DNA of 10,708 nucleotides. Origin: a virus. Its lineage: Duplodnaviria > Heunggongvirae > Uroviricota > Caudoviricetes. The number at the start of each line of letters is the position of its first letter. Position 1 is the stretch's first letter. The notes under the pieces were generated by a model. The model was not told the origin of the DNA. It worked only from the letters and a program-made list of their open reading frames with translations, and searched no databases. Of the stretch, positions 1 through 10,708 are shown piece after piece. The stretch is from the IMG/VR virus record IMGVR_UViG_2690316105_000022; one strand, 5' to 3'. The translations under genes and the position numbers were made by a program.

Positions 1-1539
1 TTATTCAGTCGGCAGTGCTACGCGCCAGGGGAGCAGTTCGCCGACCCGGTTTATCGGCCAGTCGGCTATGACGTCAAGGACATAGCGGAGGTAGCTTTCT
101 GGCTCCACTCCGTTCAGTTTGCACGTCCCGATCAGGCTGTACAGCAGCGCTCCCCGCTCTCCTCCATGATCCGAACCGAAGAACAGGTAGTTTTTGCGGC
201 CCAGACTGACCATCCGCAACGCATTTTCAGCGATGTTATTGTCCGCCTCAGCCCAGCCATCATCTGCATAGTACGTCAGCGCCGGCCACTGGTTCAGGGC
301 GTATGCGAACGCTTTCGCCAGTTCTGAGTGTCGCGACAGGGTTTTCATCTTTTCACGCAGCCAGCTTTCCAGGGATTTCAGCAGCGGTTTCGTTTTCAAC
401 TGACGTTCGGCAAGGCGCTGCTCCGCCGTCATTCCCCTTATCTCTGCCTCGATGGCGTACAGTTCGCCGATCCGTTTCAGCGCTTCCTCCGTCAGGGCTG
501 ACGGGGTGCGAACGTGCACATCGTGGATTTTACGGCGGGCGTGAGCCCAACAGGCGGCTTCCGTTATCCGGCCATCCCGGTACAGCTCGTTGAACCCGGC
601 GTATGCATCCGCCTGCAGTACACCACTGAACCCCGCAAGATGGGTCTGCGGATGGATGCCTTTTCTGTCCGGGCTGTAAGCGAACCACACCGCCGGCGCC
701 AGCGTTGACCCGGCGTTACGGTCGTCACGAACGTAGGTCCATAACCGCCCGGTCTTCGTTTTCTTATTGCCTGGCAACAGCACCGGGACAGGCGTGTCAT
801 CAGCATGGAGCTTACCGTCAGTCAGCACATAGTCCTGAAGCGCTTCTTCCAGCGGTGACAGTAGCCGGCAGCATGCATCCACCCAGCCCGACAGCAGTGA
901 ACGACTCAGCTCCACGCCCTGGCGGCCGTACATTTCAGACTGGCGGTACAGCGGGGTGTGCTCTGCATACTTTGAGATCAGCACGCGGGCCAGCAGCCCC
1001 GGTCCTGCGATACCCCGCTCGATGGGCCGTGAAGGCGCGGGGGCCTGCACGATGGCATCGCACTGAGTACAGGCATGCTTTTCACGTACAGTCCGGATAA
1101 CCCGGAAGGCGCTGCGCATCAGCTCCAGCTGTTCGGCGGCATCCTCACCCAGATAGCTCAGCGAGCCTCCACATTCCGGGCAGCATGACGCTGCCGGCAG
1201 CAGCCGTTTTTCATCGCGGGGGAGTGATTCGGGGAACGGTTTGCGGGTGCGGGTTTGACGCAGCGGGCGCTGCACGGCCGGGTCGTCAACCCGACCGGTA
1301 AGGGTATCACTTTCTTTCTGAAGTGCCTTCAGGTCAGCTTCCATCTGTGCGATACGACGGGAGACTTTTTCCGAGCGGCTGCCGAAGTTCATCCGGCGCA
1401 GCTTATCCAGCTGTGCCTGCAGATGGTCTATTTCGCGTTCACGCTCGTTCAGCTTTTCCTGCAGGGCACGGTTCAGCGCCTCCTGTTCGGCAAGGAGACG
1501 TTTCAGTGCATTGATATCGTCAGGAAGTGAGCTGCTCAT
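1..1539 (-). CDS. tnpC: IS66-family transposase TnpC (Orf3, DDE-type)
   Basis: 512-aa ORF with N-terminal coiled-coil/leucine-zipper-like region, a Cys-rich CCPECGG...CTQCD zinc-finger-like motif and a long catalytic region typical of IS66 Orf3 transposases; follows tnpB after a 48-nt gap. Confidence 0.9.
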
Positions 1540-1587
1540 ACCGGGTATATTACCAGGCTCATTCAGCGTCGACCAGGATAAAGAGGC

Positions 1588-1935
1588 TTACAACATAGTC
1601 AGGGACGTAAGCAGTCTTTTAGGCTGCCGCCAGTCGATACCTTCCAGCAGCATCGCCAGCTGTGCCGGTGTGAGGAACACTTTGCCATCCCGGGCTGACG
1701 GCCAGGCGAAGCGGCCGCGCTCCAGCCGTTTGGTCAGCAGACACAGTCCATCGCCGGTAGACCAGAGGAGCTTTACCTGACTGCCATTACGCCCACGGAA
1801 GATAAAAACGTGACCTGACATCGGATCGTCTTTCAGCGTCGTCTGCACCTTTGCCGCCAGGCCGTTGAAGCCGTTTCTCATATCGGTGATGCCAGCGACC
1901 AGCCAGATCTTTGTCCCTGAGGGTAATGGGATCAA
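1588..1935 (-). CDS. tnpB: IS66-family accessory protein TnpB (Orf2)
   Basis: 115-aa ORF (MIPLPSGTKIWLVAG...DMRNGFNGLAA...) matching the size and conserved N-terminal motif of IS66 Orf2; overlaps tnpA by 4 nt (ATGA). Confidence 0.88.
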   Translation of the reverse strand: MIPLPSGTKIWLVAGITDMRNGFNGLAAKVQTTLKDDPMSGHVFIFRGRNGSQVKLLWSTGDGLCLLTKRLERGRFAWPSARDGKVFLTPAQLAMLLEGIDWRQPKRLLTSLTML

Positions 1936-2336
1936 CGTTTGAGCTCCCGTATCAGCAGGTTCAGGATATTTTCGCTGATGGCACCATTCAGACGGAGTGA
2001 TCCGTGCCGGAACGTCACTTCACAGCTGATATTGAGTGATTCAGGTGTCGCAGCAGCTACAGGTTGTGACCGGGGGGAGGTTGTAGGGACAACATCTTCG
2101 GTATCAAGTGTTATCGGGAGCAGCTCAGGCACGTTGTTTTCTGTTGTTGAAGGAGGACGTAGTTTTCCTTCGCGCCAGTACTGGCGCCACTTGAACAGCA
2201 AATTATCGTTGATCCCATGCTCACGAGCGAGTTGCGCTACGGAGATCTCTGGTCGATGCGAGAGTTCAACCATTTTGATTTTGAACTCAACGGGATAATT
2301 AGGGCTTTTTTTACGCACTGCGGTTAATGATTTCAT
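1932..2336 (-). CDS. tnpA: IS66-family TnpA (Orf1, helix-turn-helix protein)
   Basis: 134-aa ORF first in the IS66 three-gene arrangement; the ISVAQLAREHGINDNLLFKWRQ segment looks like an HTH DNA-binding motif. Confidence 0.85.
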   Translation of the reverse strand: MKSLTAVRKKSPNYPVEFKIKMVELSHRPEISVAQLAREHGINDNLLFKWRQYWREGKLRPPSTTENNVPELLPITLDTEDVVPTTSPRSQPVAAATPESLNISCEVTFRHGSLRLNGAISENILNLLIRELKR

Positions 2337-2389
2337 GGATAGCGTCCACCATATTTGGTGTCCACTATTCTCTCAGGAATTTCAGGATC

Positions 2390-2417
2390 TGCCAGACGGT
2401 GCTGAGACGACGCTTAC
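2390..2417. repeat. Proximal terminal inverted repeat of the IS66-family element
   Basis: Minus-strand reading from 2417 inward gives GTAAGCGTCGTCTCAGCACCGTCTGGCA, beginning with the GTAAGCG motif recalled for IS66-family termini. The exact inner boundary is uncertain because the partner repeat is outside the window. Confidence 0.55.
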
Positions 2418-2419
2418 TC

Positions 2420-2725
2420 ATGAGCGAACCAAAATTTGGTGAAAAATTTTACAAGCACAACGTACGGATCACGATTCTGCAAATAAGCGCAGCTACACCA
2501 GGCTGGTGGGTTGAAACAGACGAAGGATCCTCACCCGTGGCATCATGGGCGCTTTGTGCGCTTAGTTACCCTGACAGCGATGTGTATCAGGATATTCTTC
2601 CTGTGATATCCACTGACAAAGGCATGAAACCCGTAGACATCAAAAACATGGGTTTTCAGTGCGTAATGCTCACTGAAAAAATGATGGAAGAGATGAAAAA
2701 GAACAACGCCGGATCGCTTCACTGA
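2420..2725 (+). CDS. Hypothetical protein; possibly the 3' remnant of a gene interrupted by the IS66 insertion
   Basis: The open frame runs without stops from inside the IS across the IS end to a TGA at 2723-2725, 9 nt before the SSB-like start. The first ATG outside the IS is at 2420, only 3 nt from the IS terminus, with no own ribosome-binding site. No family recognised. Confidence 0.35.
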   Translation: MSEPKFGEKFYKHNVRITILQISAATPGWWVETDEGSSPVASWALCALSYPDSDVYQDILPVISTDKGMKPVDIKNMGFQCVMLTEKMMEEMKKNNAGSLH

Positions 2726-2734
2726 GGTGGCAAT

Positions 2735-3145
2735 ATGACAGCACAAATTGCAGCTTACGGGCGGCTGGTGGACGACCCGCAGGTAAAACAGACCAGCAAG
2801 GGCACACCGATGACGCTGGCGCGTATGGCGGTATCGTTGCCATGCAGTCAGGCGCAGGACGGGCAGGCTACGTTATGGCTGTCGGTCCTGGCATTTGGCA
2901 AACAGGCCGACCAACTGGCAGGACATGAGAAAGGCAACGTAATCAGCGTATCCGGCGTGATGCAGGTCAGTCAGTGGACAGGACAGGACGGGGGGACGCG
3001 TCAGGGTTATCAGATTATTGCCGACAGCGTAATCAGTGCGAAAACGGTGAGACCAGGCGGCAGCAGACGCAAAACCACAGGCACACAGGGTAATCAGCCA
3101 CCAGCGGGAGGCGATGACCCTTACGGTGATGATATTCCGTTCTGA
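2735..3145 (+). CDS. ssb: Single-stranded DNA-binding protein (SSB-like)
   Basis: 136-aa ORF whose pattern (G.L..DP.V....G......A....W..V..FGK.A....KG..V...G.....WT.Q.G..R) aligns by eye to the E. coli SSB OB-fold, followed by a Gly/Pro/Gln-rich linker and a C-terminal acidic tip DDPYGDDIPF resembling the canonical SSB DDDIPF tail. RBS GAGGTGG lies 5-11 nt upstream of the ATG. Confidence 0.8.
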   Translation: MTAQIAAYGRLVDDPQVKQTSKGTPMTLARMAVSLPCSQAQDGQATLWLSVLAFGKQADQLAGHEKGNVISVSGVMQVSQWTGQDGGTRQGYQIIADSVISAKTVRPGGSRRKTTGTQGNQPPAGGDDPYGDDIPF

Positions 3146-3155
3146 GGGGGTGACG

Positions 3156-3428
3156 ATGGTACATGACCGCATAGCGGAAGAACTCGAAGCGAAAGGATTT
3201 TACCGGAGGGCGGCGGCGCGATGGGGTGAAGTTATGATGCTGGTGGAGACAGACAAGGAACGGCATCACATCACGATGCGACGGCTGGAATGTTCCAGGA
3301 AGGCACAGAGGCCACCGGAGACGGCGGATAATTACGGAGACCTGAAAAAGGCAGTCGATCGCACTTATGCCGAAATGGGGATAGATGGCGCTGGTGATGA
3401 AATATGGCGCAATTACCAGGACAGCTAA
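3156..3428 (+). CDS. Small transcriptional regulator, PerC-family-like (assignment from motif memory)
   Basis: 90-aa ORF starting MVHDRIAEELEAKGFYRRAAARW, resembling the A.ELE..GLWRRAA.RW signature I recall for PerC/Pch-type activators. RBS GAGGGGG is 6 nt upstream of the ATG at 3156; the start region overlaps the ssb stop. Followed by a terminator. Confidence 0.5.
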   Translation: MVHDRIAEELEAKGFYRRAAARWGEVMMLVETDKERHHITMRRLECSRKAQRPPETADNYGDLKKAVDRTYAEMGIDGAGDEIWRNYQDS

Positions 3429-3434
3429 TCACAC

Positions 3435-3458
3435 AGCCGGAGAAATCCGGCTTTTTTT
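3435..3458 (+). terminator. Rho-independent terminator after the PerC-like gene
   Basis: Perfect 7-bp stem AGCCGGA / TCCGGCT with GAAA tetraloop, followed by TTTTTT. Confidence 0.7.
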
Positions 3459-3553
3459 GCGCCAGTTGAAACGGTATGGCGCATTACCGGCTTTTCGTCA
3501 CGGTCCGGCATAGTTACTATCTGAAACAAACAGACACAACAGAGGAAAAAACA

Positions 3554-3778
3554 ATGCCGATGAAATTTGATGAGATATTAAAACAGCGTGATAAATACCA
3601 TGCTGACAACATGGAGACGATGAACATCAATGATTACCGCGCATTCCTGGAAACGGGCGCGCTAATCGAAAAGGATCGGCATGGATTTGTCAGATGTGCG
3701 CTATCCGGTGAAATGCTGGCAGTAAATCCTGAACAGATAGATGCATTGATAGAATTTCTGAAAGGGATCAGGGACTGA
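3554..3778 (+). CDS. Hypothetical small protein (74 aa), insulated cassette
   Basis: ORF starting MPMKFDEILKQ with a good RBS AGAGGA 7 nt upstream of the ATG at 3554. The 5' extension back to 3476 given by the ORF track is unlikely because it starts right after the preceding terminator. No recognisable family. Confidence 0.6.
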   Translation: MPMKFDEILKQRDKYHADNMETMNINDYRAFLETGALIEKDRHGFVRCALSGEMLAVNPEQIDALIEFLKGIRD

Positions 3779-3788
3779 GCACCCATAC

Positions 3789-3820
3789 AGCCGGAGCAAT
3801 CCGGCTTTTTGTTATTTTTT
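3789..3820 (+). terminator. Rho-independent terminator after the small ORF, near-duplicate of the terminator at 3435
   Basis: Stem AGCCGGA / TCCGGCT with GCAA tetraloop, followed by TTTTTGTTATTTTTT. The core ACAGCCGGAG[A/C]AATCCGGCTTTTT is shared with the terminator at 3431-3457. Confidence 0.7.
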
Positions 3821-3829
3821 GTAAATTAT

Positions 3830-3877
3830 TTGTTCGTGGTTGTTCCACGTTGTTCACTGAGCGGATCGGCATATTTT
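3830..3877 (+). promoter_or_regulatory. Phased TTGTTC triple direct repeat with possible sigma70-like promoter for the capsid operon
   Basis: TTGTTC occurs at 3830, 3840 and 3850, exactly 10 bp apart (TTGTTCgtggTTGTTCcacgTTGTTCactg). The third copy could serve as a -35 element, with TATTTT at 3872-3877 as a -10 after a 16-nt spacer. No transcription start data. Confidence 0.3.
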
Positions 3878-3931
3878 ACCCGAACTGAATCATGATTATT
3901 CTCGCCAGTGGTGCCAGGACGCTGGGGCCAC

Positions 3932-3979
3932 TTTCCCGCCTGTTAATGTGCTCACCAATATTCATTACCAGGCGGGAAA
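3932..3979. repeat. Long imperfect palindrome (17-bp arms, 14-nt spacer) in the capsid leader
   Basis: Left arm TTTCCCGCCTGTTAATG (3932-3948) and right arm CATTACCAGGCGGGAAA (3963-3979) are reverse complements with one mismatch. Confidence 0.6.
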
Positions 3980-4032
3980 ACGATCGGTGCGATTGCTGAT
4001 TTCCTTATGAAAAACGGTTGAGTTTTTACCGC

Positions 4033-4070
4033 GTCCTGGAGTTCCTTACTTAACCCCAGGACTTTTTTTT
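4033..4070 (+). terminator. Terminator-like hairpin plus T8 tract immediately abutting the capsid start codon
   Basis: Stem GTCCTGG (4033-4039) / CCAGGAC (4056-4062) with a 16-nt loop, followed by TTTTTTTT (4063-4070); the capsid ATG begins at 4071. The loop is long for an efficient intrinsic terminator, so function is uncertain. Confidence 0.4.
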
Positions 4071-5228
4071 ATGCCGAGAATAATCGAATTACGCCAGCAG
4101 AAAACCGCCATTAAAAATCAGATGCGCGACATGCTGGAGAACGCGGAAAAAGAAAACCGCAGCCTTAACGATGCAGAGGGCGCAAAATTTGACGAATTAC
4201 GCGCTAAAGCTGAATCCCTCGATAAAGACATTTCCCGCCTTGAAGCCATTGCAGACGAAGAGCGCAGCAAGCCAGGTAAAAGCAGCCAGACCACTGACCA
4301 GGCAGAACTCCGAAACTACATCCTGACAGGTGAAACCCGTGCATTAAGTACAGGTGTCCCCGCTGATGGTGGTTATACCGTTATCCCTGAACTGAACACC
4401 GAAATCATGCGAATACTGGCGGATGAGTCCACCATGCGCCGCATCTGTACCGTGAAAAAAATCAGCAGCAACGAGTTTAAGCAGCTTGTTTCCGCTGGCG
4501 GTGCGACCGTTAACCTCGGTGAAGAGGGTAAGGCACGCGAACAGACCAGCACCCCGCAGATTAACGAGGTGAGCATCAAGCTGTATCCGGTCTATGCGTA
4601 CCCGCGCACCACGCAGGAAATCGTGGATTTTTCCGATGTGGACATCCTTTCATGGCTGACGGGCGAGATTGGCGACACCTTCACGGAAACCGAAGAAAGC
4701 GATCTGGTTGTGGGCGACGGTGACAAAAAAGCAAAAGGCTTTTTATCCGTACCCCGTGCAGAGAAGAACGACAAAGAACGTGATTTTGGTACGTTGCAGG
4801 TAATTAAGCCTTCTGAGTCTCTTGCGTGGACATCTGCGGACCCGCTGATCGATCTGAAATTTGCATTACGTAAAAAATACCGCAAGAACGCGGTATGGGT
4901 GGTTAACTCCACGACGGCGGCAAAACTCCAGAAGGTGAAGAATGCGAACGGGGATTATATATGGCGTGACCGTTTACAGGCGGGTGATCCTGACACATTG
5001 CTGGGCCTTCCGGTCGAATATCTGGAGTTTATGCCGGATAACGTTATTGCCCTGGGTGACTTCAAACGCGGTTACTACATTGTTGATCACGAAACGGGTG
5101 TTCGCACCAGACCGGACAACCTGACAGAACCAGGATTCATCAAAATTTTCACGCAGAAATATTTAGGCGGTGGCGTGGTGGATTCGAACGCGATCAAGAT
5201 TCTGGAACTGCCACAGGACGACGATTAA
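4071..5228 (+). CDS. Major capsid protein, HK97-fold family, with N-terminal coiled-coil (delta/scaffolding-like) domain
   Basis: 385-aa ORF. The first ~70 residues are a charged, coiled-coil-like region (ELRQQKTAIKNQMRDMLENAEKENRSLNDAEGAKFDELRAKAESLDKDISRLEAIADEE) typical of HK97-type delta domains; the remainder has the size and motif feel of HK97-family capsid proteins. Sits directly upstream of a prohead protease and portal. Confidence 0.88.
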   Translation: MPRIIELRQQKTAIKNQMRDMLENAEKENRSLNDAEGAKFDELRAKAESLDKDISRLEAIADEERSKPGKSSQTTDQAELRNYILTGETRALSTGVPADGGYTVIPELNTEIMRILADESTMRRICTVKKISSNEFKQLVSAGGATVNLGEEGKAREQTSTPQINEVSIKLYPVYAYPRTTQEIVDFSDVDILSWLTGEIGDTFTETEESDLVVGDGDKKAKGFLSVPRAEKNDKERDFGTLQVIKPSESLAWTSADPLIDLKFALRKKYRKNAVWVVNSTTAAKLQKVKNANGDYIWRDRLQAGDPDTLLGLPVEYLEFMPDNVIALGDFKRGYYIVDHETGVRTRPDNLTEPGFIKIFTQKYLGGGVVDSNAIKILELPQDDD

Positions 5229-5238
5229 CAGCATACAG

Positions 5239-5269
5239 AAGGGGCTAAAAAGCCCCTTTAGTGTTTTAT
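5239..5269 (+). terminator. Hairpin with interrupted T tract after the capsid gene (possible partial terminator)
   Basis: 8-bp stem AAGGGGCT / AGCCCCTT with AAAA loop (5239-5258), followed by TAGTGTTTT. Confidence 0.45.
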
Positions 5270-5283
5270 GGGTGAAAAAAATT

Positions 5284-5841
5284 ATGAAGAGTATGGAAAT
5301 CCGGTCATCGGAAATCACCACCAGCGCCAGCAACACGCTGACGGGTTACGTTGTTCGCTGGAATAACCTTTCTGATCTGCTATGGGGTGAGTTTTACGAA
5401 AAATTTCAGCGGGGGGCGTTTACTGAGTGGCTTGCGGCGGGTAATGACGTTCGCGGCCTGTATGAGCATGACCACAGCATGTTACTGGGGCGCACCCGTT
5501 CCGGATCGCTGAAACTGGAAGAGGACGACACAGGGTTACGCTTTGAACTGACGCCACCGGATACCAGTACAGGGCGGGACGTTATCGAACTGGTTAAGCG
5601 TGGTGATATATCCGGCATGAGCTTTGGCTTTCGTTCCCGTAAGGATGTATGGGATACCACAACAGATCCATGCGTGCGCACTGTGCTGGTTGCGGAACTG
5701 TACGAAATTACCGTCACATCCGTACCGGCTTACCCTGATTCCGGCGTGGAGCTGGCCCGCCGTTCCCTGTACGAGCAGCACCCCGAAAAAATGCCGCGTG
5801 CGGATAATCGCCGCTGGTGGGCGGATTTAGCGGGGGTGTGA
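5284..5841 (+). CDS. Prohead maturation protease, HK97 family (S78/U35-like)
   Basis: The ORF contains LTGYVVRWN...GAF...DVRGLYEHDHSMLLGRTRSGSLKLEEDDTGLRFEL..P.T..GRDVIELVKRGDISGMSFGFR...TVPAYPDSGVEL, closely resembling HK97-type prohead protease motifs as I recall them. Start chosen at the ATG at 5284, downstream of the capsid stop; the track's 5170 start would overlap the capsid gene. Confidence 0.82.
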   Translation: MKSMEIRSSEITTSASNTLTGYVVRWNNLSDLLWGEFYEKFQRGAFTEWLAAGNDVRGLYEHDHSMLLGRTRSGSLKLEEDDTGLRFELTPPDTSTGRDVIELVKRGDISGMSFGFRSRKDVWDTTTDPCVRTVLVAELYEITVTSVPAYPDSGVELARRSLYEQHPEKMPRADNRRWWADLAGV

Positions 5842-5842
5842 T

Positions 5843-7054
5843 ATGTGGCCTTTCAGAAGAAAAAAAGAGCAGCGCAGCATGACGCTTGATGAATTTATGG
5901 CGCTGGCTGGCACATCGAACACGGGGGCGGGTGAGTACGTATCATCGGGGACAGCGGAATCACTCCCCGCCGTCATGAACGCCGTCACGGTCATCTCTGA
6001 GGCGGTGGCTACTATGCCATGCTACCTGTACCTGGTACGCAATGAGAAGGGGAAGGAGGCCCGCGAGTGGCTTGATTCTCATCCGGTCGATCATATCCTC
6101 AACGAGCGCCCGAACGCATGGCAAACCCCCTACCAGTTTAAGCGAATGATGATCCGCCACTGCCTGTTAAACGGTAATGCTTACGCGGTGATTCAGTGGG
6201 GGCGTGATGGTTTTCCGGCGGCTTTACATCCTTACCCGCCGCAGTCGGTGAACGTGGAGCAGACAGGAGAACACAACTGGCGCTATTGCATCACTGACGC
6301 CTACACCGGAAACACCCGCAACTATTTACCGTGGGAAGTACTTCACCTTCGTTACTCCACGGATGACGGCTTTATGGGGCGCTCACCTGTAACCATCTGC
6401 CGCGAATCGCTGGGGCTTGGGCTGGCCCAACAACGCCACGGCGCGAGCGTGATGCGTGATGGCATGATGGCGGCAGGGGTTATCACGTCAGGCGAATGGC
6501 TGGACGGCGTGAAGGGCAAACAGGCATTAGCCGCACTGGAACGCTATAAAGGGGCCAAAAACGCCGGAAAAACGCCCATCCTTGAAGGGGGCATGAGTTA
6601 CCAGCAGCTGGGCATGAGTAACCAGGACGCCGAATGGCTGGCCTCCCGTCGCTTCACCATTGAAGACATCGCCCGAATGTTCAACGTCTCGCCGATTTTT
6701 CTGCAGGAATACAGCAACAGCACCTACAGCAATTTCAGCGAGGCAAGCCGCGCATTTCTCACCATGACGATGCGCCCGTGGCTGGCGAACTTTGAGCAGC
6801 AGATAAAAAACGCCTTGCTGGTGGTCTCGCCTGTACCTGGTATCCGGTATCAGGTGGAGTTTGACAGCGCGGACCTGTTACGGGCCACACCTGGCGAACG
6901 CTTTGCCACCTATGAGCGAGGCATCAAATCCGGTGTTATGTGCCCGAACGAAGCCCGCGAACGAGAAGGGTTGTCTCCGCGTGATGGTGGTGATGAGTTC
7001 AGCCAGGCATGGAAACAGGAAGTAAAAATCAGCGAGGGAGAAAAACCGGAATGA
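5843..7054 (+). CDS. Portal protein, HK97 family
   Basis: 403-aa ORF of portal size and character lying between the protease and head-completion genes. RBS-like GGGGG is 6 nt upstream; the start is 2 nt after the protease stop. Confidence 0.85.
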   Translation: MWPFRRKKEQRSMTLDEFMALAGTSNTGAGEYVSSGTAESLPAVMNAVTVISEAVATMPCYLYLVRNEKGKEAREWLDSHPVDHILNERPNAWQTPYQFKRMMIRHCLLNGNAYAVIQWGRDGFPAALHPYPPQSVNVEQTGEHNWRYCITDAYTGNTRNYLPWEVLHLRYSTDDGFMGRSPVTICRESLGLGLAQQRHGASVMRDGMMAAGVITSGEWLDGVKGKQALAALERYKGAKNAGKTPILEGGMSYQQLGMSNQDAEWLASRRFTIEDIARMFNVSPIFLQEYSNSTYSNFSEASRAFLTMTMRPWLANFEQQIKNALLVVSPVPGIRYQVEFDSADLLRATPGERFATYERGIKSGVMCPNEAREREGLSPRDGGDEFSQAWKQEVKISEGEKPE

Positions 7055-7389
7055 ACATAGGGCGACTGCGTGACAGGGTAACGATTCAGACCCTGAAACA
7101 GACCAGAGCCATGACGGGCGAAATACTCGAAACGTGGGAGGACGGTCACACACTCTGGGCAAGCGTGAACATGGTCAGCAGCAAGGAGTCCATTTCATCG
7201 GGTGCAGAGCTGGCGATTGGTACCGTAAGGATCTGGATACGGTACCGGAAGGACATTAACGCCACCAGCCGGATAAAGGTCAATACGGGGCCGCTGGCGG
7301 GGCGTGTACTGAATATCATCGGGCAGCCGCTGCCGGATGCCGCCAGGACACGCCTTGAAATTCTTTGTCGTGAGGGCGCGGAAAAATGA
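7051..7389 (+). CDS. Head-tail adaptor / head closure protein (Phage_H_T_join-like)
   Basis: 112-aa ORF starting MNIGRLRDRVTIQ with W...LWASV and IWIRYRKDI...RI motifs typical of head closure proteins. The ATG at 7051 overlaps the portal stop (ATGA), suggesting translational coupling. Confidence 0.7.
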   Translation: MNIGRLRDRVTIQTLKQTRAMTGEILETWEDGHTLWASVNMVSSKESISSGAELAIGTVRIWIRYRKDINATSRIKVNTGPLAGRVLNIIGQPLPDAARTRLEILCREGAEK

Positions 7390-7682
7390 CAGAAGAACTT
7401 ATCACCCTGGAAGAAGTGAAACTCCATTGCCGCATCGATGGCGACGAGGAAGACCAGTTAATCAGCGGATACATTGCCGCATCGCTTGAGGCGTGCCAGA
7501 TACACATAGGCAGGCGCTTTGATGACGGGCTGGAGTTCACGCCAGCCATAAAGATTGGCTGCATGATGTTTATCGCTCACCTGTATGAGAATCGCCAGAT
7601 TGTCGCGGATAACGCAAAAACACACGTACCCATGACGATTGGCGCACTCTGGACGGCTTACCGTGATGTGGGGGTGTACTGA
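7386..7682 (+). CDS. gp6-like head-tail connector protein
   Basis: 98-aa ORF starting MTEELITLEEVKLHCRIDGDEEDQLISGYIAASLEA, matching the I.LEE.K.HLRID.D.ED.LI...I.AA pattern of gp6-like connector proteins. Start overlaps the preceding stop (ATGA). Confidence 0.7.
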   Translation: MTEELITLEEVKLHCRIDGDEEDQLISGYIAASLEACQIHIGRRFDDGLEFTPAIKIGCMMFIAHLYENRQIVADNAKTHVPMTIGALWTAYRDVGVY

Positions 7683-8122
7683 TGCCGTGGCAACCATTAA
7701 GACGATGTACAGAACCAGGCTGCAACAGGCGCGTGAAGTCCGGCAAGTGTGAGGAGCACAGACGCAGCGCACGCCAGCAGCAGGACAGCCGGAGAGGCAG
7801 CAGCAGGGAGCGAGGGTATACGAGGCAGTGGGAGAAATACCGCGCCATGTATCTGAGTAAAAACCCGTTATGTGCGCATTGCCTGGAAAAAGGAATATAC
7901 ACGCCCGCCGTGGTGGTGGATCACATTATCCCAATCGATGGCGGTAATGATGTTCTCTTCTGGCCTGAGTGGAATCATCAGCCATTGTGCCAGGCGTGTC
8001 ATAACCAGAAAACGAAATGGCTTGATCCGTCCACAAAAAACAAGCGTGCTGCGGGTGGATTCCGTGAGGAGGAAGAACGGGCCGCTAACCGCAATAACTG
8101 GATGTATGGCGCTGATGAATGA
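7682..8122 (+). CDS. HNH endonuclease (terminase-associated type)
   Basis: 146-aa ORF with paired Cys motifs (CTEPGC, CAHC, CQAC) and an HNH core VDHIIPIDGGND...WNHQPLCQACHNQKT, located immediately upstream of terS/terL. Start overlaps the preceding stop (TGATG). Confidence 0.88.
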   Translation: MPWQPLRRCTEPGCNRRVKSGKCEEHRRSARQQQDSRRGSSRERGYTRQWEKYRAMYLSKNPLCAHCLEKGIYTPAVVVDHIIPIDGGNDVLFWPEWNHQPLCQACHNQKTKWLDPSTKNKRAAGGFREEEERAANRNNWMYGADE

Positions 8123-8288
8123 GCGGGAACAAAACCGCCTTATCCGTGGACTTATAAGGCAGCGTGACGCATGGAAGGCACAGGAAACAGGGCATAAAGA
8201 TAAAGCATCAGGACGCGCAGAACGCATCACAGCGACGCGATTAAACGACCGTGACCGCGAGGTTATGGAATGTTTCCGCAATCGCTGA
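8115..8288 (+). CDS. Hypothetical small basic protein (57 aa), uncertain
   Basis: ATG at 8115 overlaps the HNH stop (ATGAATGA) and the ORF runs to a TGA at 8286-8288; an alternative ATG lies at 8106. It fills the otherwise non-coding gap between HNH and the GC-rich intergenic region. No strong RBS and no recognisable family. Confidence 0.3.
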   Translation: MNEREQNRLIRGLIRQRDAWKAQETGHKDKASGRAERITATRLNDRDREVMECFRNR

Positions 8289-8411
8289 TGAGGCAGCCGG
8301 ACGGGGTGGGGGGAGTTTTCAGGACGAACCCGACCCCGCCCAGAACCGAACGCCTCCCCAAATTTTTATGCACGGTAATTTTTTGAAAAATAATCTGGCG
8401 AAAAAATAAGC
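8289..8411. other. Candidate cos / packaging-recognition region upstream of terS
   Basis: GC-rich block with G-runs and complementary C-runs (CGGGGTGGGGGGAG at 8302-8315; CCCGACCCCGCCC at 8329-8341; CGCCTCCCC at 8351-8359), followed by an AT-rich segment (AAATTTTTATGCACGGTAATTTTTTGAAAAATAATCTGGCGAAAAAATAAG) ending at the terS start. Position between HNH and terS is where cos sites sit in HK97-like cos phages. Confidence 0.3.
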
Positions 8412-8768
8412 ATGGCAAGACCACCGAAAGCCCCCGCCTACCTGGATGATATCGCCGTGAAGCAGTGGCGGGAAAAATCGCGGCAGCTTGCGGAACGGGG
8501 AGACCTGACCCCTGCCGACTGGAGTAATCTGGAACTGTATTGCGTCAATTACTCGATATACAGGAAAGCCGTCGCAGACCTTGCGGCGCGCGGGTTCAGC
8601 ATTGTTAACAGTCAGGGCGGAGAGAGCAGAAACCCCGCATTAAGCGCGAAATCCGACGCGGAAAGAGTGATGATAAAAATGGCCTCTTTGCTCGGTTTTG
8701 ACCCGATAAGCCGCCGTAAAAATCCACCGGAAACAGAAGAAGAGGACGAGCTTGACCGCCTGGAATAA
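8412..8768 (+). CDS. terS: Terminase small subunit, P27 family-like
   Basis: 118-aa ORF with the L..YC..Y......A.......G......G.......NP pattern and a C-terminal acidic tail, consistent with P27-family small terminases. Lies directly upstream of, and overlapping, the large terminase gene. Confidence 0.8.
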   Translation: MARPPKAPAYLDDIAVKQWREKSRQLAERGDLTPADWSNLELYCVNYSIYRKAVADLAARGFSIVNSQGGESRNPALSAKSDAERVMIKMASLLGFDPISRRKNPPETEEEDELDRLE

Positions 8769-10413
8769 GTACGCAGAAGACGTAAAAACGGGCAAAATTC
8801 CGGCCTGTAAACGGCTGAAACAGGCCGTTAAACGGTACTTTTCGGACCTTGAAAACCCCCTTTACATGTTCGATCGTGAGGTTGTTGAGCGGTTTATTGC
8901 CTTTCCCAGGGTGTGCCCGCACGTAAAAGGGCCGATGCGTGGAAGACCCATTGAGCTGGAACCGTGGCAGCAGTTTGCCTTTGCGTGCATCCTCGGCTTT
9001 AAGGTTAAGGCCACCGGAAGGCGCAAATACACGAGCGCCTTTATCGAAGTGCCGCGCAAAAATGCGAAATCCACGACAGCCGCGATTCTGGCTAACTGGT
9101 TTCTGATTATGGAGAACGGGCAGCAGGATATTTACACCGCAGCGGTGAGCCGCGACCAGGCGCGGATCGTTTTTGATGATGCGCGTCAGATGTGCCTTTT
9201 ATCCCGACCGTTACGCAAGAGAGTGAATATTCAGGCCCACAAGGTGATGCACCCGAAAAGCAACAGCCTGTTAAAGCCGCTGGCAGCAAAAGCGGCAACC
9301 ATCGAGGGTACTAACCCCAGCCTTGCCATTGTGGACGAATACCACTTACACCCCGATAACGGCGTTTATTCTGCGCTTGAACTGGGGATGGGGGCACGTC
9401 CCGAAGGGCTGTTATTTGCCATTACCACATCAGGCAGCAACGTCGTTTCAGCCTGTAAACAGCACTATGATTATTGCTGCCAGATCCTGGACGGCGAAGA
9501 GGTCAACGATTCAATTTTTGTACTGATTTACGAACTGGACGACGAAAACGAGGTTGATGATCCGGAGATGTGGATAAAGGCGAACCCTAATATTGATGTT
9601 TCCGTGGATCGTGAAAAACTGGCCTCAACCATCCAGAAAGCGCGGGGCATACCGTCGCAATGGGTGGAGATGATGACAAAGCGATTTAATATCTGGTGTC
9701 AGGGGGCTACCCCGTGGATGGGTAACGGAGCATGGGCTGAGTGCGCCGGAAAGTTCACGGAGGAAGATTTACACGGTCAGGAATGTTACGCGGGGCTGGA
9801 TTTATCATCCACAAGCGACATTTCCAGCGTGTGCTATGCCTTTCCGGTCGGTAAAAATATCATGCTGGTTTCCCGTCATTATCTGCCGGAGTTCCAGTTA
9901 CAGAACCCAGCCAATAAAAATCGCGCTATCTATCGCCAGTGGGCACGGGCGGGATGGATACGCACAACGCCAGGGGACTGCATTGATTACGACCGGATAC
10001 GTGATGACATCATGCAGGACGCGGAAAAATTTAATATCAGGCTGGTGGGCTTCGATACGTGGAACGCAACGCATCTCAGGACGCAATTACAGGGGGCAGG
10101 CTTTGAGGTGGAGCCGTTCCCGCAAACCTACCTTCGATTCAGTCCGGCGGCGAAATCGTTCGAAGTTTTTGTTAACCGCAGGGTTATCGTGCATCGTGGT
10201 GATCCGGTGTTGTCCTGGTCGATGAGTAACGTCGTGATGCAGAGTGACGCGAACGCCAATATCAAGCCGAACAAGAAAAAATCACCGAACAAGATAGACC
10301 CGAGCGTGGCGGCACTGATGGCGTTTGGTACATTCCAGGCAGAGCATGAGGATTTTGCTTTTGATATAAGCGACAGCCACCGCCAAAAACTGGAAGAATT
10401 TAGCGGGGTGTAA
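8752..10413 (+). CDS. terL: Terminase large subunit (ATPase plus nuclease)
   Basis: 553-aa ORF with a Walker A-like motif (VPRKNAKSTTAAI), a Walker B-like LAIVDEYH segment and a C-terminal nuclease-like region. Overlaps the terS 3' end by 17 nt. Confidence 0.9.
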   Translation: MTAWNKYAEDVKTGKIPACKRLKQAVKRYFSDLENPLYMFDREVVERFIAFPRVCPHVKGPMRGRPIELEPWQQFAFACILGFKVKATGRRKYTSAFIEVPRKNAKSTTAAILANWFLIMENGQQDIYTAAVSRDQARIVFDDARQMCLLSRPLRKRVNIQAHKVMHPKSNSLLKPLAAKAATIEGTNPSLAIVDEYHLHPDNGVYSALELGMGARPEGLLFAITTSGSNVVSACKQHYDYCCQILDGEEVNDSIFVLIYELDDENEVDDPEMWIKANPNIDVSVDREKLASTIQKARGIPSQWVEMMTKRFNIWCQGATPWMGNGAWAECAGKFTEEDLHGQECYAGLDLSSTSDISSVCYAFPVGKNIMLVSRHYLPEFQLQNPANKNRAIYRQWARAGWIRTTPGDCIDYDRIRDDIMQDAEKFNIRLVGFDTWNATHLRTQLQGAGFEVEPFPQTYLRFSPAAKSFEVFVNRRVIVHRGDPVLSWSMSNVVMQSDANANIKPNKKKSPNKIDPSVAALMAFGTFQAEHEDFAFDISDSHRQKLEEFSGV

Positions 10414-10426
10414 TGAGGTCAGCAGC

Positions 10427-10708
10427 ATGACAGAAGCCGAAATACTGCGATTAATCCGCCGCGTCTCTGGAATCAGCCAGCAGCATGACGAACAGGCCAC
10501 GCAGCCGGACAGCGTGACCGCCGAAAATTATGCGCGTGTTGTTGCTGAGGTGATGCGCCGTGATGGTATCCAGCTTAATGATGTGGATATGCGCAACATA
10601 CGGATCCGCGTTCTTGAAATGCTGGCCTACCGTCGCCGCGTGCAGACGTACAGGGAAAAAGCAAAAATTACGTACCACTGGAAGAAGCCGGAGCGGTTAC
10701 GGCGGTAA
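10427..10708 (+). CDS. Hypothetical protein (93 aa), basic C-terminus
   Basis: ORF with RBS GAGGT 7 nt upstream of the ATG at 10427, beginning 13 nt after the terL stop; the stop codon coincides with the last three bases of the window. No recognisable family. Confidence 0.55.
   Translation: MTEAEILRLIRRVSGISQQHDEQATQPDSVTAENYARVVAEVMRRDGIQLNDVDMRNIRIRVLEMLAYRRRVQTYREKAKITYHWKKPERLRR

Follow-up and report, generated by a model that had tools for sequence, protein, structure and literature searches.

The DNA sites of recombination directionality factors (RDFs) are direct repeats placed one helix turn apart, as described for Apl (PMC7498355). Apl of phage 186 and Xis of phage lambda bind such repeats cooperatively, bend the DNA, and are used both at att sites and in a promoter region (PMC7498355); Apl acts as a repressor of the early promoters pR and pL, and neither protein is known to control an operon of structural genes. 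TorI of KplE1 in E. coli, a small excisionase-type winged-helix protein acting at attL and PintS, binds sites with the core GTTCG, GATCG or GTCCG, among them one block of three separated by 2 nt; these sites lie beside the integrase arm sites, and the integrase promoter is repressed from them (PMC2951348). The Cox protein of P2 forms filaments on at least six direct repeats 10-11 bp apart, serves excision, represses one promoter, and activates the late promoter PLL of the satellite P4 from an upstream array (PMC3936717). Two further proteins, RdfS of ICEMlSym R7A and BldC of Streptomyces, are small, winged-helix and MerR-like and assemble on DNA as head-to-tail oligomers; RdfS couples excision to transfer functions, and BldC, which is no recombination factor, regulates developmental promoters (PMC11963761, PMC5859096).

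The published work on AlpA in the PICIs EcCICFT073 and EcCIEDL933 concerns the same element family and the same regulator as the locus described here. PICI AlpA, whose expression is triggered by helper phage, activates the promoter of its own gene, and induction depends on it (PMC6092414); mutation of alpA abolishes both induction and transfer of EcCIEDL933 (10.1101/2022.09.08.507074). Capsid-forming PICIs (cf-PICIs) make capsids of their own, for which no helper phage is needed; tail-less capsids are reported to form in the absence of any helper (10.1101/2025.02.11.637232). In the literature searched, we found no description of how the packaging operon of a cf-PICI is switched on. The two cf-PICI preprints, on EcCIEDL933 and on helper-free capsids, mention no promoter; a keyword search whose scope took in few of the subscription journals returned no paper on a PICI AlpA operator, and searches for P4 Vis binding sites, PDB 8c3t and CP-933C transcription starts gave nothing usable. 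The AlpA antiterminator of P. aeruginosa, which acts at a GGGACG site, has the name alone in common with PICI AlpA. It is much larger and 21Q-like, its authors report no sequence homology to 21Q, and we set it apart by its description (PMC9371919).

The window, that is, the whole stretch of 10,708 nucleotides that was analysed, is an EcCIEDL933-like capsid-forming PICI, a phage satellite whose left part has been lost to an IS66 insertion. Positions 2418-10695 are 98.2% identical to a 15.9-kb island of E. coli 2015C-3163 (L001), which is inserted in tqsA and carries the direct repeat ATAACAGCA on both sides. The gene order of this island (int, alpA, an icd-like gene, a DUF4222 gene, primase, ssb, perC, a small cargo gene, and then the capsid and packaging genes) matches the organisation of EcCIEDL933 (10.1101/2022.09.08.507074). 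A complete IS66-family element (PF03050, PF05717, PF01527) occupies positions 1 to about 2417 of the window, with tnpA at 1932-2336, tnpB at 1588-1935 and the transposase gene at 1-1539, all on the minus strand. Its insertion point is equivalent to position 7979 of L001 and splits the island into a capsid half and a half with int, alpA and primase; because the IS66 element and the window edge remove the left part, int, alpA and the att sites are absent from the window.

The packaging operon begins with the gene for an HK97-family major capsid protein (4071-5228, plus strand) and continues through genes for a protease, a portal, a head completion protein, a connector, an HNH protein, TerS and TerL to 10413 (Pfam matches PF05065, PF04586, PF04860, PF05521, PF05135, PF01844, PF05119, PF03354 and PF20441). 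The expected place of the element's cos site is the non-coding stretch at 8122-8412, which separates the HNH gene from terS. On the other side of the capsid gene, a terminator scan placed an intrinsic terminator, AGCCGGAGCAATCCGGCT followed by a T-run, at 3789-3811 on the plus strand (hairpin 3789-3806), where it ends the upstream cargo cassette and forms the left boundary of the conserved control region of the capsid module. The same hairpin precedes the repeat array described below in relatives with different upstream cargo genes.

Directly past this terminator, in the stretch before the capsid operon that would be expected to contain a dedicated promoter, lie three TTGTTC units on the plus strand, at 3830-3835, 3840-3845 and 3850-3855, with exact 10-bp phasing. 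The first-pass annotation had called both the copies and their location correctly. The hexamer as such is not enriched in the window (8 matches vs 6.5 expected). No other 6-mer is repeated three times at a period of 7 to 15, and a non-trivial 6-mer repeated three times at period 10 turned up in only 0.07% of 3000 first-order Markov random windows. Two degenerate units precede the exact ones, TTGTAA at 3819 (11 bp from the first unit) and TTGTTA at 3809 (21 bp), so that three exact units and weaker upstream ones follow each other as direct repeats 10-11 bp apart. The TTGTAA is part of a conserved box, TTTGTAAATTAT, at 3818-3829 on the plus strand. The best 10-mer form of the repeat unit is TTGTTCCACG. 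In the window the spacers between the units form a 5-bp palindrome, CGTGG...CCACG, which is incidental because relatives have CAGG, or GTGG/GTGG, in its place.

Related elements keep the phased repeats, which bears out the proposal that this is a genuine, helically phased binding array. Among 22 distinct variants, per-position conservation was 1.00 for the box TTTGTAAATTAT, 0.99 for the units, 0.93 for the spacers between them, and only 0.69-0.75 for the flanks. All E. coli/Shigella-type loci that cover the region have the array, about 215-240 bp before the capsid ATG regardless of the upstream cargo gene, and a 39-bp block remains 97% identical even where the flanks are unalignable and the capsid proteins are only 63-75% identical. 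Judged by this comparison of sequences, the array is real and functional, and the interpretation of it as a phased operator upstream of a dedicated capsid promoter holds. No match to the control region was found among 50,697 phage records. A scan of genome contigs with a capsid alignment yielded four loci only, of which those of Symbiopectobacterium lack both the array and the conserved box. Among the matches listed for the exact triple repeat in viral contigs, most were in unrelated contigs; the type of motif is therefore not unique to PICIs.

The intact island shows that the array is one of a set. In L001, pairs of the form TTGTTC-N4-TTGTTC or similar occur 14 times vs 2.4 expected, a number reached in 0 of 200 shuffles, and they cluster at four places: attL, the int-alpA interval, the capsid-upstream region, and attR. 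The attL array (934-969) consists of TTGTTC, TTGTTT, TTGTAG and TTGTGT and is followed by two copies of GGTGTAGTCAC just 5' of int. Between int and alpA there are five units on the minus strand (2296-2345) with an extra pair at 2560-2575, and relatives have runs of four or five units in this interval; the orientation here is opposite to that of the capsid-upstream array. The latter, equivalent to the array of the window, is at 9391-9416. The attR array (16644-16669) is followed by GGTGTAGTCAT, and an IHF-like site, read by eye, lies between the array and the core. A classical PICI that forms no capsids (L176) has arrays at attL, int-alpA and attR, and none before its packaging genes.

The tandem 11-mers directly upstream of int, such as GGTGTAGTCAC, GGTGTAGTTAA and TGTGTGGTCAG (977-999 and 16687-16697 in L001; also upstream of int in L008, L020 and L043), vary with the integrase allele, and TTGTTC does not. 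Therefore the 11-mers, and not the TTGTTC units, are probably the arm-type sites of the integrase. One variant also resembles the lambda arm-type consensus. In both att arms of L001 the TTGTTC repeats abut these integrase-dependent tandem sites, which is the usual layout of an RDF site beside an arm site; the att sites themselves lie outside the window.

Which protein binds the repeats can be approached by elimination. In the 30 complete array-bearing elements, i.e., those in which the sequence from int to capsid is present, the only proteins common to all are Int, AlpA, the Icd-like protein, the DUF4222 protein and the capsid protein; the primase belongs to different families, and some elements lack PerC or SSB. 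DUF4222 is also found in lineages without an array. An AlpA-family gene (PF05930, E = 1e-16), itself outside the window, is present in 30 of the 30, and AlpA is the only candidate RDF present in every array-bearing element. The closest solved structure to PICI AlpA is annotated as an AlpA family phage regulatory protein. The TTGTTC arrays are constant across integrase, primase and PerC alleles, and their occurrence at attL, attR and int-alpA, including in the non-capsid PICI L176, points to AlpA and not to PerC. The existence, conservation and distribution of the arrays are plain observations, and integrase, primase and PerC are ruled out as their binders.

The distribution beyond E. coli is consistent with this assignment. 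The cf-PICIs of Morganella, Proteus, Citrobacter and Salmonella have an AlpA of 92-94 aa or none that was detected, and no TTGTTC array anywhere, and they have the leader, the -10 element and the 5' box in common with the E. coli elements. Elements of the E. coli L002 type have a leader like those of Morganella and Citrobacter, yet a 62-aa AlpA and the array. The array thereby appears to follow the type of AlpA, not that of the capsid or the leader. No alternative repeat common to the att sites and the capsid-upstream region was found in the Morganella, Proteus and Citrobacter elements, and therefore this covariation is one of presence and absence only. Local CATGTTTAC-like repeats do precede the capsid gene in the four non-array genera, and they are absent from the att and alpA regions there. 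Within E. coli, AlpA alleles at only 64-68% identity keep the same motif, so that motif and protein do not covary there. The CP4-57 AlpA of K-12 was tried as a comparator and is uninformative because it is 30% identical to PICI AlpA and its attL has no TTGTTC arrays.

The promoter that the array would serve is probably not the one first proposed. The first-pass annotation had suggested that the third TTGTTC doubles as a -35 element for TATTTT at 3872-3877. This hexamer is indeed present, 16 nt 3' of the third copy, but it is not conserved, the L002/L003 subfamily having TGTTTA there. A better candidate is found at 3875-3902 on the plus strand, with a -35-like TTTACC (3875-3880), a 16-nt spacer and a -10-like TATTCT (3897-3902), from which transcription would start near 3909. 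In the window this candidate has 8 of 12 consensus positions, which is below the scan threshold, and was not called; its positional homologues TTTACA-16-TATGTT in L002 and TTTACA-16-TATCTT in the Salmonella element L182 have 9 of 12, and each was called independently by the scan. The -10 element also has positional homologues in Citrobacter (TATCTT in L181) and in Morganella and Proteus (TATATT), and in all of these, as in E. coli and Salmonella, it lies 5 nt before a conserved hairpin, H1, at the start of the leader. With a start near 3909, the three units would lie at about -79/-74, -69/-64 and -59/-54, centred near -76.5, -66.5 and -56.5. They would then be upstream of the -35 element and on one face of the helix, which is the geometry of a class-I activator.

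We favour, with moderate confidence, the interpretation that the array is an AlpA operator that activates the capsid and packaging operon and couples it to the induction switch of the satellite; AlpA is assigned as the binder by elimination and by analogy with the systems above. AlpA, a small winged-helix RDF and the master activator encoded by the satellite itself, would bind the TTGTTC units head to tail, one monomer per helical turn, which is the binding mode of TorI, Apl, Cox and lambda Xis. Units at attL and attR, beside the integrase arm sites, would serve excision, and those between int and alpA would serve autoregulation of alpA. The units before the capsid gene, in a class-I position about 54-79 bp upstream of the start from the weak candidate sigma-70 promoter TTTACC-16-TATTCT, would turn on transcription of the capsid and packaging genes once AlpA is produced. 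The HK97-like capsid module would thus be under the control of the induction switch that belongs to the satellite, not of a late regulator from the helper phage, and if true this would explain how a phage-derived module was rewired. The AlpA box, with its consensus TTGTTCCACG and 10-bp phasing, would also provide a signature for AlpA regulons and for att-site architecture in the PICIs of E. coli and Shigella.

Compared with its closest analogues, the array would belong with the RDF operator arrays, which are a known class; the advance is incremental and involves no new principle. As with TorI, the repeats lie beside arm sites and are about one helix turn apart, and the TorI core GTTCG is similar to the core (T)TGTTC(G/C) found here. 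However, TorI represses the integrase promoter, whereas the additional array described here precedes the capsid operon and probably activates it. A TorI sequence fell below the PF05930 threshold, with only a weak HTH_17 match, and we therefore treat TorI as a functional analogue rather than a family member. Cox is a product of the helper phage that works on the satellite in trans and recognises the box TTAAA(G/C)NCA; here the factor would be encoded by the satellite, and the array has three strong units and one or two weak ones. RdfS lacks a clear sequence motif, and BldC recognises AATT-N4-C repeats.

The direction of regulation is uncertain, because RDFs of the TorI and Apl type mostly repress promoters and because the arrays near alpA are oppositely oriented. 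AlpA might bind the array and act negatively or architecturally, repressing or insulating the capsid promoter, forming a roadblock to read-through, or bending the DNA. TorI at PintS and Apl at pR and pL do repress via phased repeats (PMC2951348, PMC7498355). The third unit would overlap the -35 element were TTGTTC/TATTTT the real promoter, and the array beside alpA overlaps a promoter-like TTGCCA-17-AACAAT, read by eye. We nevertheless regard a negative role as unlikely: published work presents PICI AlpA as an activator on which induction depends (PMC6092414; 10.1101/2022.09.08.507074), similar arrays serve Cox in activating the P4 PLL promoter (PMC3936717), and the conserved promoter would place the array at -54 to -79, beyond the RNA polymerase footprint.

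It is also conceivable, although improbable, that a host or helper protein that binds direct repeats, e.g., a response regulator of the OmpR/PhoB or ArcA type or an excisionase-like protein of the helper, recognises the array together with the TTTGTAAATTAT box. This box lies 88-90 nt upstream of hairpin H1 in nine of nine lineages from five genera, whatever their type of AlpA and even where none was detected, and because it is kept in lineages with another AlpA or none, a second factor may also act at it. The exact 12-mer TGTAAATTATTT is found in the attR arm of L001 as well (16724-16735). Unrelated viral contigs, too, have arrays of TTGTTC(C) spaced at 10 bp, and TGTAA-N6-TGTTC may resemble the direct repeats of response regulators. 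However, the spacing of the array is 10 bp and not 11, and within PICIs the arrays co-locate with the integrase arm sites in both att arms and with alpA. Helper factors in particular, including the helper-phage late activator named in the first-pass annotation, are unlikely binders because capsids form without a helper (10.1101/2025.02.11.637232) and the region is unmatched in the phage records searched.

The first-pass annotation had also named the adjacent PerC-like protein as a binder, which could then activate the capsid operon. A gene of the PerC family (PF06069, E = 6e-43) does lie about 400 bp upstream, and it is present in 28 of the 30 complete elements. This attribution did not survive the comparison and is very improbable: the array persists in L002, L003, L142 and L054, in which no PerC homologue was detected, L002 and L003 having a ProQ/FinO-family gene in that place, and L176 has PerC yet no array before its packaging genes. 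Binding by PerC would, moreover, leave the identical arrays at attL, attR and int-alpA unexplained. Least credible of all is that the repeats are integrase arm-type sites or replication-origin iterons, which are likewise short phased direct repeats: the integrase does carry an Arm-DNA-bind_3 domain and a similar array directly follows a primase/helicase-like gene in the viral contig L058, but TTGTTC stays the same among integrase alleles that are 66-100% identical while the pairs beside int do change, about 7 kb separate the capsid-upstream copy from either att site, the same array occurs in elements with different primase/helicase families, and separate origin-like GGGTAGAGGG iterons surround an AT-rich stretch directly after the primase gene.

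Downstream of the candidate promoter, the capsid mRNA would begin with a structured leader. The fold of the 160-nt leader is more stable than that of shuffled sequences (z = -5.4). Hairpin H1 (GTGGtgCCAG-GACG-CTGGggCCAC; 3907-3932, plus strand), located where the capsid mRNA is predicted to begin, shows compensatory changes in 5 of its 10 pairs in the consensus fold, and its GACG loop is invariant; the inner stem is 100% paired, with both sides changed in 3 of 4 pairs. Hairpin H2 (TTTCCCGCCTGTTAATG ... CATTACCAGGCGGGAAA; 3932-3979, plus strand), an inverted repeat (I1) that is also part of the minimum-free-energy fold, is kept as a stem in L045 with another loop. Directly before the capsid ATG, at 4033-4070 on the plus strand, the fold and the inverted repeats I3 and I4 give a terminator-like hairpin, GTCCTGG...CCAGGAC followed by T8, which the terminator scan missed because its loop is long. 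The Shine-Dalgarno sequence AGGA lies buried in the 3' arm of this hairpin, and in leaders of the window type the 5' arm, GCGTCCTGG (4031-4039), is perfectly complementary to positions 3914-3922 of H1. In a late operon of the lambda Q type, an intrinsic terminator separates the promoter from the first late gene, and a dedicated antiterminator loads at the promoter; of the leaders compared here, those of window-type elements and of L045 have the hairpin with T8, and those of Morganella, of Salmonella and of the L002 type lack it.

Nine of nine lineages, drawn from five genera, have one CGTC at a distance of 33-38 nt from the capsid ATG. The sequence flanking this CGTC covaries with the 3' side of H1, with 91% of positions paired and two pairs changed on both sides. 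The energy of the duplex between H1 and the downstream leader was, taken alone, not significant against shuffles (z = -1 to -2), and an Rfam scan of 3300-4300 at E <= 1 returned chance matches only. Across these few lineages, the pattern of covariation suggests that the leader of the capsid operon is a conserved RNA switch. A more speculative and, in our view, unlikely extension is that AlpA coordinates excision, its own expression, and capsid and packaging transcription through one kind of filament-forming operator, with the leader as a second checkpoint in which H1 pairs either locally or with the CGTC, opening the hairpin that holds the terminator and the ribosome-binding site. In its boldest version, AlpA loaded on the array would help RNA polymerase past the leader terminator.

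Several minor observations concern the wider element family. In the cf-PICI subfamily of L002 (5191-5960) and L003 (5197-5978), the gene for the ProQ/FinO-family RNA-binding protein and a small ORF replace perC directly upstream of the structured leader. Two near-identical terminator hairpins (AGCCGGAG[A/C]AATCCGGCT), at 3435-3452 and 3789-3806 of the window, flank a small cargo ORF (3555-3778). Differing cargo in the relatives ends in the same hairpin, and therefore the cargo site between the twin hairpins is suggested to be a cassette-exchange hotspot. Some cf-PICIs (L075, on the reverse strand, and L184 at 1201-4274) lie beside or inside phage terminase genes and have two AlpA-family genes; these may be satellites embedded in their helpers. 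In L001, a dense field of GGGTAGAGGG and CCCTCTACC iterons at 7394-7630, directly 3' of the primase gene and around an AT-rich stretch, is the probable replication origin of the PICI. The array of L058 (9586-9611) has four direct TTGTTCC units and one inverted unit with 10-bp spacing, directly 3' of a gene for a primase/helicase-like protein of 777 aa; L058 belongs to an unrelated family of high-GC viral contigs, with at least about 15 similar contigs among the matches listed, in which the TTGTTCC units may be origin iterons.
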